Shown here piece after piece: positions 2,855 through 19,507 of a stretch of 25,674 nucleotides of DNA (position 1 is the stretch's first letter; every line of letters starts with the position of its first letter). The DNA comes from Vicinamibacterales bacterium (GTDB taxonomy: Bacteria; Acidobacteriota; Vicinamibacteria; Vicinamibacterales; 2-12-FULL-66-21). The stretch covers positions 1 through 25,674 of the forward strand of contig DASPFV010000150.1 of the NCBI GenBank assembly GCA_035620975.1, read 5' to 3'. Position numbers and translations under genes: made by a program. Below the pieces are notes generated by a model. The model saw only the letters and a program-made list of their open reading frames with translations, did no database searches and had not been told where the DNA came from.

Positions 2855-2905
2855 GGCGCTCGGCACGCCCGCGGCCGCGGACGTTTAACCGCCGATCGTA
2901 CCATG

Positions 2906-2984
2906 CCACGGACCCACACGGAAGGGGCCACGGACGAACACGGCTCCACACGGAAGGCGGCCACCGACGAGCACGGCGAGGGGG
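2906..2984. repeat. Degenerate copy (forward orientation) of the dispersed CACGG-motif repeat family: CCACGGACCCACACGGAAGGGGCCACGGACGAACACGGCTCCACACGGAAGG...
   Basis: Seen directly. It contains the 16-mer CCACGGACGAACACGG, which is identical to 17441-17456. It is intergenic, upstream of uvrB. Confidence 0.7.
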
Positions 2985-3164
2985 CGTTCCAAACGCTCGC
3001 CGCGGAGCAGCAAGCACTGCCCGCCGCAAATGCGGCGCATCTCGCGCCGGTCTCGAGCATGCTCGGCTTTGTGTGCCAAGTGCGTCCGGCCGTCCGTCAT
3101 CTTCGTAATCTTCGCGTCGGGATCCTCATTTCAGGTAGGGGGTCAGTTTTCAAAACGGCCGACG

Positions 3165-3195
3165 TTGACACAATGGCGCACGGTGTAAGATGGCG
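3165..3195 (+). promoter_or_regulatory. Possible sigma70-like promoter for the VOC gene (TTGACA ... TAAGAT). A perfect 11-bp palindrome GTTTTCAAAAC at 3147-3157 lies just upstream and is a candidate operator.
   Basis: Hexamers read from the sequence in the AT-richer stretch 3100-3310. The spacing is about 15-16 nt, which is sub-optimal. Confidence 0.3.
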
Positions 3196-3310
3196 GGCCG
3201 AGCCTTCCCGAACGAGCAAAAATGAAACCGAAGAGCATCGACACCACGCCGCCGCGGCTGAAAAGTCCCACCGGTGGTCAACGAAGGTTGTTTCTAGGAC
3301 GGGCATCGCG

Positions 3311-3718
3311 ATGAAGCCGCGAGTGACCTCTCTCGCGCCGCAGTTCCTTGTCGATGACCTTGAACGCTCGATCGCATACTACAAAAAGCTCGGTTTTACG
3401 TTCGGCGAACCATGGGACGGTTTTTACGCCATCGGCGAGTTGAACGGACTGGAACTCCACCTAAAGGAAGCACCCCACAACCAGGCGGAGCGTCGCTGGC
3501 GGCGCGACTGTGAGCATCTTGACGCCTCGGCCGGCGTCGACGGCATCGAAGCATTTTACGAACAGTGCGTCGCCAACGGCGTCACGATCATCAAGGCGCT
3601 TGCTGGGACGGCCTGGGGGACGAAGGACTTCTATATCGAGGACCCCGACGGCTACATCATCTCCTTCGGCGGCAGCCCAGCGGCCGGGCCGTTGGAATCA
3701 CGCAGGGAGTCAAGCTGA
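3311..3718 (+). CDS. VOC (glyoxalase / bleomycin-resistance / dioxygenase) family protein, about 135 aa
   Basis: Translation MKPRVTSLAPQFLVDDLERSIAYYKKLGFTF...GTKDFYIEDPDGYIISF is the typical paired beta-alpha-beta-beta-beta VOC fold signature. An AGGA lies about 11 nt upstream. GC content and third-codon-position usage are visibly lower than in neighbouring genes. Confidence 0.8.
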   Translation: MKPRVTSLAPQFLVDDLERSIAYYKKLGFTFGEPWDGFYAIGELNGLELHLKEAPHNQAERRWRRDCEHLDASAGVDGIEAFYEQCVANGVTIIKALAGTAWGTKDFYIEDPDGYIISFGGSPAAGPLESRRESS

Positions 3719-3875
3719 CCGACCACCATGGCTCAGCGTTTCACTGCGGGCTGCTCTGGCCCCCTGACCATCTTGGGAAATGCGGTTCAGCCCTTCGGGT
3801 CGAGGCACAACGGGTCAGGATGATCTCTCCGCTGGCCCAGTGCCCTGCCCAGTCGTAATCCGCACGCCTGCTCTG

Positions 3876-3948
3876 TCCGTGTCTCGTCCGTGTTCTTCCG
3901 TGGCGTGGTGTGGCGTGGTGTCCGTGTCTCGTCCGTGTTCTTCCGTGG
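3876..3948. repeat. Two copies of the 27-mer CCGTGTCTCGTCCGTGTTCTTCCGTGG separated by CGTGGTGTGGCGTGGTGT. This is the reverse-orientation member of the CACGG-motif repeat family.
   Basis: Seen directly. It is intergenic, between the convergent VOC and VWA genes. Confidence 0.8.
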
Positions 3949-3960
3949 CCTGGCGCGGGG

Positions 3961-9171: not shown

Positions 9172-9636
9172 TCATTCGTCGTGAATCGTGAGCAGCTTGA
9201 CCAGCTCGAACCGCTTGCTGCCGAGCGGCGTCTGGACGGTGACCTCGTCCCCCTCTTCCTTGTTGATCAGCGCACGACCGATGGGGGACGCCGTCGAGAT
9301 CAGTCCGCTCTCGACGTCAGCGTCCTCCGGCATGACGAGCTGGTAGACGATCACTTGATCGGCTTCGCCCTTGAGGTGCACGGTGGAGCCGAACGCGGCG
9401 CGATCCTTCGGCAGCTTCTCCAGGTTCATCAGAGCGATTTCGCTGACGCGCTTTTTCAGGAGGCTGATCCGCGACTCGACCAGGCGCTGGCGCTCCTTGG
9501 CGGCATGGTACTCGGCGTTCTCGCGCAGGTCTCCCAGCTCTCGCGCGCGCCTGATCTCCTGCGGCAGCTCCTTCTTGAGCTCCTTCTCGAGCTGCTGGAT
9601 CTCGTCCTCGAATTTCTTCAGTATCTGCGCCTTCAT
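9172..9636 (-). CDS. greA: Transcription elongation factor GreA, 154 aa
   Basis: MKAQILKKFEDEIQQLEKELKKELPQEIRRARELGDLRENAEYHAAKE... is the canonical GreA N-terminal coiled-coil, followed by the FKBP-like C-terminal domain. An AGGA RBS lies upstream of the ATG at 9636. Confidence 0.9.
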   Translation of the reverse strand: MKAQILKKFEDEIQQLEKELKKELPQEIRRARELGDLRENAEYHAAKERQRLVESRISLLKKRVSEIALMNLEKLPKDRAAFGSTVHLKGEADQVIVYQLVMPEDADVESGLISTASPIGRALINKEEGDEVTVQTPLGSKRFELVKLLTIHDE

Positions 9637-9650
9637 CGCCGCTGATCCTA

Positions 9651-9780
9651 GCACGGCCGCGGACACACACGGCCACGGAAGAACACGGCCACGGAAGAAC
9701 ACGGCCACGGAAGAACACGGCCACGGAAGAACACGGAAGAACACGGCCACGGAAGAACACGGAAGAACACGGACATACAA
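9651..9780. repeat. Tandem array of the CACGG-motif repeat family: the 16-mer CACGGCCACGGAAGAA four times, then mixed 10-mer (CACGGAAGAA) and 16-mer units, ending ...CACGGACATACAAT
   Basis: Seen directly. The units abut one another with no unique spacers. The array lies in the divergent intergenic region between greA (-) and the trmH-family gene (+). Confidence 0.9.
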
Positions 9781-9781
9781 T
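9776..9781 (+). promoter_or_regulatory. Perfect -10-like hexamer TACAAT formed by the 3' terminus of the repeat array, 8 nt before the GTG start of the methyltransferase gene. Implies a leaderless or near-leaderless transcript.
   Basis: Seen directly. There is no obvious -35 element; the tandem repeats occupy the upstream region. Confidence 0.35.
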
Positions 9782-9789
9782 ACTCGTCT

Positions 9790-10584
9790 GTGGAGCGCGT
9801 CTCGAGCCGCCACAATCCTCTCGTCAGGGAGTTCCGCGCGCTGGCGCGCTCGGGCGGGCGGGACGGCCGCGTGCTGCTCGACGGCGAGCACCTGCTGACT
9901 GAAGCGCTCGCGAGCGGCGTGGACGTGGAGGTCGCGGCGGCGCTCGACGGAGCCCTGCCCGAGCGCATCGTGCAGGACCTTCGGTCGCACGGTACACGGG
10001 TCATCATCATCGCGCCGGCAGTCCTGGCCGCGGTGAGCCCCGTGCGCCAGCCGTCCGGCGTGGTCGCCATCGCGCGGCTTCGTTCCACCGCCCTGTCGGG
10101 CGTGATGGAGCGTCCCCCGCAGCTCGTGCTGCTGCTGGCCGGCGTTCAGGATCCCGGGAACGTCGGCGCGATCGTCCGCGCCGCCGAGGCCTGCGGGGCG
10201 ACGGGTGTGGTGTGTACGGCCGGCTCGGCCGATCCCTTCGGGTGGAAGGCCCTGCGGGGGTCGATGGGCAGCGCGCTGCGCGTGCCGATCGCGTCGAAGG
10301 CCTCCGCGGACGCAGCGCTCGAGACGGCGCGCGCGTACGGCCTGGCGCTCGTTGCAGCCGTCCCGCGGGGCGGGACGCCACTGCCCGTGTGCGACCTGCG
10401 GCCGCCGGCGATGATCCTCCTGGGCGGAGAGGGTCCGGGACTCACCGGAGCCGCCCTGCGAGCCGCGGATGCGCGTGTGACAGTTCCGATGCGCGCGCCG
10501 GTCGAATCCATGAACGTCGCGGCCGTGGCGGCCATCGTGCTCTACGAGGCGGCCCGCCAGCGCGCGGGCGAAGGGATCGCATGA
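9790..10584 (+). CDS. TrmH/SpoU-family RNA 2'-O-methyltransferase (RlmB-like), GTG start
   Basis: The SpoU_sub_bind-like N-terminus (SRHNPLVREFRAL) and SPOUT motifs (LLLAGVQDPGNVGAIVRAAEACGA; ILLGGEGPGL; ESMNVAAVAAIVLYE) are present. The stop overlaps the rarA start (ATGA). Confidence 0.85.
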   Translation: MERVSSRHNPLVREFRALARSGGRDGRVLLDGEHLLTEALASGVDVEVAAALDGALPERIVQDLRSHGTRVIIIAPAVLAAVSPVRQPSGVVAIARLRSTALSGVMERPPQLVLLLAGVQDPGNVGAIVRAAEACGATGVVCTAGSADPFGWKALRGSMGSALRVPIASKASADAALETARAYGLALVAAVPRGGTPLPVCDLRPPAMILLGGEGPGLTGAALRAADARVTVPMRAPVESMNVAAVAAIVLYEAARQRAGEGIA

Positions 10585-17413: not shown

Positions 17414-17427
17414 CGGCTTCCCTCCGC

Positions 17428-17490
17428 CACGGAAGAACACGGACGAACACGGTGCCACGGAAAAACACGGACAAACACTGACAGATACAA
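17428..17490. repeat. Forward-orientation copy of the CACGG-motif repeat, CCACGGAAGAACACGGACGAACACGGTGCCACGGAAAAACACGGACAAACACTGACAGATACAA. It directly abuts the RBS of the cytochrome-like gene.
   Basis: Seen directly. Its terminus ...CACGGACA.ACA...ATACAA is shared with the array at 9651-9780. Confidence 0.85.
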
Positions 17491-17615
17491 GAGGCCGGAG
17501 GACCTGGAACTCTGCGCCGGCACTCACCCTGAGGTCGAGCGATCGAGCCGGTTGGATCAGCCGGAGTATGCCACGTAATCCTCCAGGCGGGTGTCCTCGA
17601 CCTCCGGATCTGAAT

Positions 17616-17734
17616 CCGTCCGTGTCCGTCCGTGTTGTTCCGTGGCCTCAACGTCCGTCCGTGTTCTTCCGTGGCCTCAACGTCCCGTCCGGGTTGTTCC
17701 GTGGCCTCAACGTACGTCCGTGTTGTTCCGTGGC
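17616..17734. repeat. Reverse-orientation tandem array: about 4 units of ~30 bp (CCGTCCGTGTTCTTCCGTGGCCTCAACGT). It runs up to and overlaps the mutL stop codon.
   Basis: Seen directly. Together with 17428-17490 it forms an inverted-repeat pair around a 125-bp core. Confidence 0.85.
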
Positions 17735-19507
17735 TCAAATCCGCTGGAAGTTGCGCTCGATCTCCCGGCGCGTCATCCGCAGGACGACCGGACGGCCGTG
17801 CGGGCAGACGCTGGAATACGCCGTCCGTCTGAGCTCGTCCAGGATGTAGCGCATCTTCGCGAGCGTCAACGGGTAGTTCGCCTTCACCGCGGCGTGGCAG
17901 GCCATCGTCGCGGCGATTCGGCGCAACGCATCTTCCACGCGCGAGCCGCCGTCGAGGCCTTCGAGGTCGTCGGCCAGCGCGCGGATCGCCGCCTCGCAGT
18001 CGGCGGGCTCCAGTATCGCGGGCACGGCGACGAGGCGGAGGCTGTTGCCGCCGAACTCCTCGACCTCGAGGCCGAACCGGTCGAGGGTCGAGTTGTGCCG
18101 CGCGACCACCTGACGCTGCGCGGGCGAGAGCTCGATCAGGATGGGGGTCAGGAGCCGCTGGCTCTCGAGCCGGCTGGCGGTCAGCTTCTCCATCATCTGC
18201 TCGAACAGCACCCGCTCGTGTGCCACGTGCTGATCGACGATCGCGACCCCCTCGTCGTCCACGGCGATGATGAACGTGTCGCGGAACTGCCCCAGGGGGA
18301 TCATCGGGCGGATGTCGGCCGCGGAAACGGCCGGGGCGACGCCGCCAGTGGAGCCCTCCGGCAGCGCGTCCGCCGGCGCTGTGCCGGCGAACGCACGGAA
18401 CGCCGCGTCGTGCTCGGCGCTCCACCGGCTCCCGACCGACGCGCCGGACAGGACCCCCGGCAGCGGCGCGGCGCGCGGCGCGTCCGCTCGCGCGGCGAAC
18501 GGCGTGAACTGCAGCTCGGGGACGCGCCCCTGCCCGAGCGCCTCTCCGAGGGCCCGGCGCAGCACCTCGTGCACCAGCGACTGTTCGAGGAAGCGGACTT
18601 CGGCCTTGGTCGGGTGTACGTTGACGTCCACGCGGTCCGGCGCCAGCTCGACGAAGAGGTGCACTTCCGGGCTGCGTTCCTTGATGGTCGCCACCGTGTA
18701 CGCCTCACCGATCGCGTGCGCGATCGTCCGGTCGCGCACGATGCGCCGGTTCACGAAGACGTTCTGGGCTCCACGCACGGGCCCTTCGTCGCCCAGTGCC
18801 GCGATGTAGCCGTGCAGGCGGATGCCGCCCGCCTCCTTGCGCACCTCGATCAGATCGGGGCGCTCGCCGAAGAGCTGGAAGAACCGCTCGGCGAGGCCGC
18901 GGGCAGGCGGGCACTCGAGCAGGCGGCGGGAACCGCTCGTCAGCGTGAACCCGATCTCGGGATAGCCCAGGGCGAGCTGGGTCACCAGTCGTGAGACCTG
19001 GGCTGACTCCGCCGTGTCCGACTTCAGGAACTTGCGGCGCGCCGGCAGGTTGTAGAAGAGGTCGGCGACGTCGATGCAGGTTCCTTCCGGCGCCCCCACT
19101 TCGCGCTCGGAGGTGACCGTACCGCCGCTCACCCGGATCTCGGTCCCGCTCGCCGCGCCTCTCGCCCGGCTGCGGAGCACGAAGTGAGACACGGACGCGA
19201 TGCTCGGGAGCGCCTCCCCTCTGAACCCGAGCGTTCGAATCGCGGCGAGATCCTCGGGTGAGGCGATCTTGCTGGTTGCATGCCGCTCGATGGCGAGCCG
19301 CGCGTCGTCGGGCTCCATGCCATCGCCATCGTCCTCGACCCGGATGAGCTTCTTGCCGCCGAATTCGATGACGACGGCAACACGGCGCGCGTGAGCATCG
19401 AGCGCGTTCTCGACCAGCTCTTTGACGACCGACGCCGGACGCTCGACGACCTCGCCGGCGGCTATCTGATTGGCCAGGTGCGGCGGCAGGCGGTGAATCA
19501 CAGCCAT
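17735..19507 (-). CDS. mutL: DNA mismatch repair protein MutL, 590 aa, starting at MAVIHRLPP
   Basis: The GHKL ATPase N-terminus is LPPHLANQIAAGEVVERPASVVKELVENALDA, with transducer and C-terminal dimerisation domains. The ATG at 19507 overlaps the corA stop. Confidence 0.9.
   Translation of the reverse strand: MAVIHRLPPHLANQIAAGEVVERPASVVKELVENALDAHARRVAVVIEFGGKKLIRVEDDGDGMEPDDARLAIERHATSKIASPEDLAAIRTLGFRGEALPSIASVSHFVLRSRARGAASGTEIRVSGGTVTSEREVGAPEGTCIDVADLFYNLPARRKFLKSDTAESAQVSRLVTQLALGYPEIGFTLTSGSRRLLECPPARGLAERFFQLFGERPDLIEVRKEAGGIRLHGYIAALGDEGPVRGAQNVFVNRRIVRDRTIAHAIGEAYTVATIKERSPEVHLFVELAPDRVDVNVHPTKAEVRFLEQSLVHEVLRRALGEALGQGRVPELQFTPFAARADAPRAAPLPGVLSGASVGSRWSAEHDAAFRAFAGTAPADALPEGSTGGVAPAVSAADIRPMIPLGQFRDTFIIAVDDEGVAIVDQHVAHERVLFEQMMEKLTASRLESQRLLTPILIELSPAQRQVVARHNSTLDRFGLEVEEFGGNSLRLVAVPAILEPADCEAAIRALADDLEGLDGGSRVEDALRRIAATMACHAAVKANYPLTLAKMRYILDELRRTAYSSVCPHGRPVVLRMTRREIERNFQRI

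Follow-up and report, generated by a model that had tools for sequence, protein, structure and literature searches.

An array of a dispersed 10-bp-periodic intergenic repeat separates the predicted leaderless promoters of greA and a TrmH-family gene in a Vicinamibacterales genome

Short repeats and repeated sites in the intergenic DNA of bacteria are known from several described systems. REP/REPIN elements, or repetitive extragenic palindromes, owe their mobility to RAYT transposases (PMC3116915, PMC3733652). Arrays of the heptamer TAACTGA, whose function is unknown, occur in Beggiatoaceae, Cyanobacteria and Bacteroidetes (PMC4679880). The operators of MraZ consist, across diverse bacteria, of GTG(G/T) boxes placed 6 nt apart, and the operator of M. 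genitalium ends in a GTGG box (PMC12957436). At the level of promoters, leaderless genes are marked, above all in high-GC bacteria, by a TANNNT box about 12 bp before the start codon (PMC3160421). Here we analyse a tandem repeat array located between greA and a divergently transcribed TrmH/SpoU-family RNA 2'-O-methyltransferase gene (hereafter trmH) in a metagenome-assembled genome (MAG) of Vicinamibacterales (Acidobacteriota). The window analysed is the complete 25,674-bp contig. With a probability of roughly 0.68, the array belongs to a high-copy intergenic repeat with a 10-bp period, of which it is a lineage-specific copy, and lies passively in a length-tolerant spacer, between two ancestral promoters that consist of a -10 element only.

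The gene greA occupies positions 9172 to 9636 on the minus strand (154 aa, ATG at 9636 to 9634; Pfam domains GreA_GreB_N and GreA_GreB) and trmH positions 9790 to 10584 on the plus strand (264 aa, GTG start; Pfam SpoU_methylase and a substrate-binding domain). The array makes up 121 of the 153 bp that separate them. The GreA N-terminus, MKAQIL, is aligned from residue 1 by its orthologues, and an identical GreA protein is present in two other assemblies. The TrmH-family protein is 100% identical to a Vicinamibacterales protein of the same name at NCBI, also of 264 aa and therefore read from the same GTG. Since 24 TrmH homologues share the N-terminus MERISSRQNPLV, which is their consensus, the GTG at 9790 is the true trmH start. 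A 272-codon open frame is also present on the minus strand (9172-9990), beginning with a GTG inside trmH and running through the whole array into greA; it was discarded as an artefact of repeat composition, as both the orthologues and the identical proteins begin at MKAQIL.

Each of the two genes is preceded by its own -10-like element. On the trmH side, the hexamer TACAAT lies at 9776-9781 (plus strand), 3 nt past the last array unit, and is followed by 8 nt (ACTCGTCT) and the GTG; the positions of hexamer and GTG agree with the initial annotation of this DNA. On the greA side, an extended -10, TGcTAGGAT (9653 to 9645, minus strand), lies 8 nt before the ATG. No Shine-Dalgarno sequence was found upstream of either gene in the window. 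TACAAT is also present 8-10 nt before the trmH start in all four array-free orthologous loci retrieved first, as can be seen by comparing the upstream sequence of the window (acaTACAATactcgtctGTG) with those of L111 (gcgTACAATacccagcgATG), L112 (gcaTACAATcaccacaaATG), L113 (gggTACAATcaccaccgggATG) and L115 (gagTACAATcaccggctgATG). In the wider set of non-redundant orthologues, TAnnAT occurs 6-10 nt before the trmH start in 19 of 30, with two such hexamers over the other 45 upstream positions. The same is observed for greA, with TAnnAT 6-10 nt before the ATG in 24 of 32 orthologues versus nine elsewhere upstream, TGcTACCAT being the commonest extended -10. Because orthologues without the array keep TAnnAT at a similar distance from the trmH start, TACAAT is, on this comparison, older than the array. 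The earlier suggestion that the terminus of the array creates this hexamer does not hold, as the hexamer lies outside the last unit and is kept where the array is absent.

Both genes thus display a -10-like hexamer at a short, fixed distance from the start, kept in orthologues and unaccompanied by a Shine-Dalgarno sequence. The resemblance to leaderless-gene promoters (PMC3160421) comprises the position of TACAAT and TAGGAT 8 nt before the trmH and greA starts, their positional conservation and the high-GC genome. It concerns the flanking promoters only, not the array, and the distance from hexamer to start is 1-2 nt above the modal value, so that a leader of 1-2 nt is possible. TACAAT is very probably the working trmH -10, and the trmH mRNA would be leaderless or nearly so, in agreement with the initial annotation. 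Both greA and trmH are predicted to be leaderless and to be transcribed from ancestral -10 elements. As each -10 sits between the array and its gene, the array is located upstream of both predicted start sites. It would consequently not form the 5' region of the greA transcript, a role that had been ascribed to it before the extended -10 of greA was recognised between the array and the ATG.

Tandem Repeats Finder places the array at 9652-9772 (score 152) and describes it as 7.3 copies of the 16-nt unit CACGGCCACGGAAGAA, with 10-nt CACGGAAGAA units interleaved. The presence of an array between the divergent genes had been correctly recognised, although its length is 121 bp and not the 130 bp first given. 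It contains 14 CACGG motifs, and the spacer can be parsed as G CACGGCCGCGGACACA (CACGGC CACGGAAGAA)x4 CACGGAAGAA CACGGC CACGGAAGAA CACGGAAGAA CACGGACA TACAAT. The first unit of the program, CACGGCCGCGGACACA (9652-9667, plus strand), is degenerate, overlaps the extended -10 of greA at its TG and mostly matches ancestral sequence beside that element, not the array. A similar sequence, gCACGGCCACG, is found at the equivalent place in array-free orthologues (L118, L124-126). Since 9652-9667 largely matches this native promoter-flanking sequence, the array proper starts at about 9668. It extends from there to 9772 on the plus strand, in the CACGGA orientation and with the canonical GCCACGG end toward greA, as (CACGGC CACGGAAGAA)x4, CACGGAAGAA, CACGGC CACGGAAGAA, CACGGAAGAA and CACGG(ACA). 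The 16-nt unit corresponds to the canonical module of a dispersed family (described below) repeated head to tail, and all six of the 6-bp spacings in the 829 kb of DNA from which the family statistics were drawn come from this array.

The array is real in nature, because independent assemblies carry it: two short-read assemblies, 99.8-99.9% identical to the window, contain the array and break off inside it. In the Logan assemblies SRR25158315 and SRR25158314 (L197 and L198), the contigs stop 60 nt upstream of greA, within the array.

The comparison of orthologous loci shows how freely this spacer varies. The gene order, with a Cys/Met pyridoxal-phosphate enzyme, patatin, greA on the minus strand, and trmH and rarA on the other side, is kept in relatives and in 80 metagenomic loci. 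None of about 74 orthologous greA/trmH spacers has more than two CACGG/CCGTG motifs, versus 14 in the window, and no true decamer array was found in 215 kb of orthologous greA/trmH loci. The array is absent from all sampled orthologues and, on this sampling, lineage-specific. In the 14 orthologues where both -10 hexamers are present, they are 15-180 bp apart (median 49); the 125 bp of the window falls within this range. In the compact orthologues, with hexamers just 15-37 bp apart, the -35 position of each promoter overlaps the -10 or the coding start of the other, and no conserved -35 was detected among the greA/trmH orthologues. In 12 of the 74 spacers, tandem repeats are present whose units (for example TCAATGT, GATGCGGGATCCGC or AATTGTG) are unrelated. 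Those of L119, L120, L121, L132, L141 and L171 differ from each other, with 7-nt (TCAATGT, ATTGCTG, AATTGTG), 22-nt and 46-nt units. Judged by these spacers, repeats have recurrently landed or expanded in the divergent gap between greA and trmH. Because its length and content vary so widely in relatives, nothing in the spacer looks essential, and the two promoters do not appear to need the array.

In one relative (L115, 2360-2485), the spacer between greA and trmH is filled by another short repeat, CCCGGAT / GCGGGATCC, which also directly adjoins CACGGA arrays in two further Acidobacteriota MAGs (L005 and L079). It may belong to a repeat family that is related to, or co-occurs with, that of the CACGGA arrays.

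In the model put forward by the initial annotation, the end of the array supplies the trmH -10, the units replace a -35 element as activator or UP-like sites, and the array is the 5' leader of greA, so that a repeat would have been co-opted as promoter architecture. Some features are in its favour: the array fills the spacer and adjoins both genes, TACAAT stands where a leaderless start would require it, and another array of the contig (A1, see below) also abuts an extended -10-like sequence, TGgTACGAT, facing uvrB. However, TACAAT and the extended -10 of greA are both present in array-free orthologues, and the latter element leaves the array upstream of the greA start site. The array does not offer a convincing -35 either: compared with TTGACA, the best hexamer has 3/6 matches for trmH and 1/6 for greA. 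With 43% A+T, the regions from -40 to -60 do not resemble an UP element, and a consensus scan of the array region found no sigma-70 promoter. A sigma-70 promoter with an array-borne -35 or UP element was rejected on these grounds. Furthermore, the repeat occurs in all spacer types, including convergent spacers and sites after stop codons, while the spacers of relatives tolerate 15-180 bp of unrelated sequence, free in length and content. Co-option is not indicated by these data, and we regard the model as very improbable.

The repeat at greA/trmH belongs to a dispersed family whose unit has the logo A-CACGGA-N-N-A, a period of 10 bp and the canonical terminal module GCCACGGAAGAACACGGA. An exact scan for GCCACGGAAGAACACGGA, with one genome per species, yielded at least 110 stretches. 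Among the matches listed, and with a few isolated coding hits set aside, the module is multi-copy in MAGs of Vicinamibacterales and other Acidobacteriota, in Marinobacter, Oceanisphaera, Tamilnaduibacter, Thioalkalivibrio and Ectothiorhodospiraceae (isolate genomes and one complete genome included) and in Planctomycetaceae, with single examples from several other lineages. The 18-mer is identical across Acidobacteriota, several gammaproteobacterial genera and Planctomycetes. E. coli has no match to the module. A phage or plasmid origin was rejected, as the module is without a match in 2.9 million viral contigs or in PLSDB plasmids.

The 829-kb data set contains 142 arrays, compared with five in composition-matched shuffles; of the roughly 560 unit intervals, 325 are 10 bp long. 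Although about 80% of this DNA is coding, 131 of the 142 arrays lie outside called genes. Their contexts (26 divergent, 27 convergent and 55 co-directional) are approximate counts, as they depend on approximate gene calls. At one orthologous site with flanks 80-86% identical (L074 and L079), the array has been kept and the number of units differs. The family termini read (T-rich)GC|CACGGAA. When two arrays of opposite orientation lie within 400 bp of each other, their GCCACGG ends face outward in 37 cases and inward in none (23 versus 1 by a stricter definition), a polarity that is not seen in longer-range pairs (4 versus 8). The genes that lie inside the four long outward-facing pairs are unrelated (VOC/glyoxalase, PCMT-like, GxxExxY and HisG). 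The arms of inverted pairs share the motif, yet their spacers are not fully complementary.

No description of this decamer family was found in the literature searched by unit sequence, core hexamer and keywords; it is apparently an undescribed variant of bacterial intergenic repeats. Among published repeats, the TAACTGA heptamer arrays (PMC4679880) come closest to it. Both are abundant intergenic direct repeats of a short, non-palindromic unit, often located a few nucleotides from gene boundaries, and both are patchily distributed across distant phyla, which suggests horizontal spread with no evident vehicle. They differ in that the decamer unit has 10 nt instead of 7 nt and a helical-turn periodicity, in the frequent outward-facing inverted pairs of the decamer family (one indirect repeat was reported for TAACTGA), and in the preference of the decamer family for sites just past stop codons as well as before starts.

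The similarity to REP/REPIN elements (PMC3116915, PMC3733652) lies in the high copy number, the intergenic, non-coding location, the occurrence as singlets and as inverted doublets of fixed polarity, and the persistence of copies at orthologous sites across species. In contrast, the family unit is a non-palindromic decamer and not a 20-40-bp stem-loop, its (T-rich)GCCACGG termini lack the GTAG or CGTC tag by which REPs are recognised (PMC3733652), and the decamer family forms head-to-tail arrays of up to about 20 units. Unlike REP families, which are lineage-specific, it has an 18-mer common to several phyla. No RAYT-like gene flanked by decamer arrays was seen within the four long outward-facing pairs. 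The copy at greA/trmH is a singlet in these terms, without an inverted partner.

Miniature inverted-repeat transposable elements, or MITEs, provide a further comparison. The family members are short, non-coding and intergenic; many are bounded by terminal inverted repeats whose outer end is defined, (T-rich)GCCACGGAA, and lineage-specific interiors occur between shared termini. Unlike MITEs, they show no target-site duplication (none in the flanks of 23 paired elements), and no cognate transposase was found. Many members, including the greA/trmH array, are solo direct arrays that lack terminal inverted repeats.

Two genera contain larger elements around the module. In Thioalkalivibrio (L010, L018, L019, L034, L047, L089 and L110), the CACGGA hairpin lies inside a larger conserved palindrome (...ccacccctgacgatgaaaa..GCCACGGAA ... 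TTCCGTGGC..ttttcatcgtcaggggtgg...), which makes up a composite element specific to this lineage, with the shared module at its core. In Oceanisphaera, a conserved stretch, gtaggcgaacgcttgctctcgcatttc..., lies about 40 nt upstream of the module in L011, L014 and L082, and several loci share the interior sequence AAAATAGAGAT(T/C)AGATC, which suggests a genus-specific miniature element carrying the module.

The position and orientation of the arrays relative to genes raise the question of an RNA-level role, in which the greA/trmH array would be transcribed in the CACGGA sense toward trmH, from a promoter inside it or farther upstream, and would serve as a multi-site platform for an RNA-binding protein (for instance, one of CsrA type that binds A-N-GGA) or as a translation-coupling leader. 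The CsrA consensus obtained by systematic evolution of ligands by exponential enrichment contains ACA-R-GGA-U-G, which resembles ACACGGA(U/A)G. Solo arrays beside the 3' end of a gene are in the CACGGA sense in 19 cases versus 5 (p = 0.007), and seven Acidobacteriota arrays begin 1-3 nt past a stop codon. In several arrays of the family, just 2-10 nt separate the end of the array from the following start codon, and ACGGA could act there as a weak ribosome-binding site. For the TAACTGA analogue, ribosomal protein S1, cold-shock proteins and CsrA have been proposed as candidates for such a role (PMC4679880). However, the conserved -10 elements put both start sites of the greA/trmH locus outside the array, and the consensus scan revealed no promoter-like site reading into it. 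As RNA, the solo array gives no significant fold compared with shuffles (z of -1.15 for the plus strand and -2.3 for the minus strand), and the GGA motifs would be base-paired in inverted pairs. There is no csrA gene in the fetched DNA and no link of the motif to CsrA in the literature searched. A role of this kind at greA/trmH is highly doubtful.

Other possible functions at the level of transcript or structure were examined and discarded. An intrinsic terminator was rejected, as the two scan hits in the array are 5-bp stems that rely on G-T pairs and have no true T-run; in the paired gammaproteobacterial elements, the hairpin comes after a T-run and before an A-run. A structured RNA or DNA made by the solo array was dismissed because its folding is not significant. 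No hit reached the gathering score among 4227 Rfam covariance models in the window (a chance hit with E = 1.8 lies outside the array), the Rfam scan of 16 other family-bearing loci gave tRNAs only, and no tRNA or tmRNA was found in the window. The idea of an elemental pause (G-10 Y-1 G+1) was dropped, since any 10-nt repeat with a YG step fits it, on both strands.

Alternatively, the array could be a series of phased binding sites for a conserved DNA-binding protein that co-regulates both divergent promoters, with MraZ as the candidate. The complementary strand of the family reads GTGT-N6-GTGT-N6-...-GTGG (in the window, GTGT-TCTTCC-GTGT...GTGG-C), with GTGT internal boxes and a GTGG box at the outer terminus (CCGTGGC). 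These are 10-bp direct repeats like those of the MraZ operator, and MraZ is near-universal in bacteria (PMC12957436); the upstream region of E. coli mraZ itself has GTGG at an exact 10-bp spacing. The predominance of 10-bp intervals in the family is in line with this proposal, and so is the sharing of the motif, more than of spacer complementarity, by the arms of inverted pairs, which points to selection on the motif over pairing. The conservation of 7-8 of the 10 unit positions in unrelated phyla calls, in the same sense, for a conserved trans-acting partner.

The agreement with the published box spacing (PMC12957436), although exact on the complementary strand, carries little information, as by our own estimate about 15% of random 10-mers hold GTGG or GTGT on either strand. 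The family conserves well beyond the 4-bp core, including TCC before GTG, and the E. coli operator has different flanks. A natural operator comprises 3-4 boxes and occurs once, upstream of the dcw cluster, whereas there are 14 boxes at greA/trmH, and arrays of the family, with up to about 20 boxes, are spread over very many loci. In the way degenerate units decay, the GTG core did not stand out, and simple DNA binding does not predict the orientation bias with respect to upstream genes. None of the fetched loci contains an mraZ gene, and searches with MraZ protein (one of them with a chimeric consensus query) gave matches from Pseudomonas only. The binding of MraZ to the family is putative, and we consider co-regulation of greA and trmH through such sites unlikely. 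A broader version of the idea, which we find a little harder still to credit, is that the A-CACGGA-NN-A arrays are an undescribed cross-phylum repeat class of in-phase MraZ boxes, GTG(T/G)-N6, acting as genome-wide binding or decoy sites for MraZ or a related protein of the AbrB/SpoVT fold, or as a mobile element that uses it.

The passive spacer repeat is the explanation that we favour, and the following course of events may be proposed. A module of the family would have landed in, or been copied into, the gap between two back-to-back -10-only promoters, where the likeness of the native gCACGGCCACG to the module may, speculatively, have aided insertion through microhomology. The module would then have been amplified locally as head-to-tail 16-nt modules, with replication slippage or unequal exchange as the simplest route. 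In its present form, the array fills the 125 bp between the -10 hexamers and, lying upstream of both predicted start sites, would be spacer DNA and not leader. Its effect is probably passive and would consist of moving apart two competing divergent promoters, whose polymerase sites overlap in compact orthologues.

Several observations weigh against this explanation. The conservation of the unit across phyla points to recognition and not to neutral filler, and a conserved partner is implied by it. The fixed polarity and the 19:5 orientation bias with respect to upstream genes likewise argue for recognition by some factor. If that factor binds DNA, about 13 bound sites between the two promoters would probably influence greA and trmH. 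In addition, leaderless initiation is deduced from conservation alone, and the closest available orthologue, with a TrmH identity of only 63%, is too distant for the time and mode of insertion to be reconstructed.

The greA/trmH array is one of five arrays of the family in the 25.7-kb contig, which together span divergent, convergent and co-directional spacers; CACGGAAGAA occurs 17 times in the window at one mismatch or less, versus 1.2 expected. Array A1 (2905-2977, plus strand) is located in the divergent spacer between uvrB (minus strand) and a glyoxalase-family gene (plus strand). Its outer GCCACGG end lies 1 nt from the extended -10-like TGgTACGAT (2903 to 2895, minus strand), and the probable uvrB ATG (2854 to 2852) follows about 40 nt downstream of that site. 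The geometry is the same as at greA, with the outer end of the array abutting an extended -10 that reads outward. Array A2 (3874-3949, minus strand) occupies the convergent spacer between the glyoxalase gene (plus strand) and a VWA gene (minus strand), is in sense with the latter and begins 13 nt past its stop codon.

The glyoxalase/VOC-family gene between A1 and A2 (2990-3870) has a G+C content of 0.57-0.62, compared with 0.68 for the contig, which suggests a possible acquisition. A cargo transposon bounded by A1 and A2 was nevertheless rejected, since long-range array pairs elsewhere are unpolarised and enclose unrelated genes. The flanking of this gene by A1 and A2 is probably coincidental, the two arrays merely lying in neighbouring spacers.

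The remaining two arrays form an outward-facing inverted pair of about 320 nt that fills nearly the entire spacer from mutL to the next gene. A3 (17426-17483, plus strand) is the inverted partner of A4 and lies just upstream of the ribosome-binding site and ATG (17413) of a CarboxypepD_reg gene (minus strand), ending at its GGAGGG ribosome-binding site. A4 (17615-17734, minus strand) has a 29-nt super-unit, and its start lies exactly at the stop codon of mutL (TGA|GCCACGG on the minus strand). As RNA, the region 17414-17745 folds into a hairpin of about 320 nt (-170.8 kcal/mol, z = -7.2).

The account of co-option is thus replaced by a simpler one, in which a repeat would have expanded between two ancestral leaderless-type promoters without being needed by them. 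In Vicinamibacterales, the comparison of this locus with its orthologues gives evidence for leaderless expression of greA and the TrmH-family gene. Decamer arrays fragment the short-read assemblies of this lineage. If the broader MraZ proposal were true, the greA/trmH copy would tie two housekeeping promoters to the cell-division regulator MraZ or a related protein. The greA/trmH locus itself is ordinary, and it is the repeat family that deserves follow-up: its implied conserved partner, once identified, would explain a sizeable share of the intergenic DNA in family-bearing genomes.

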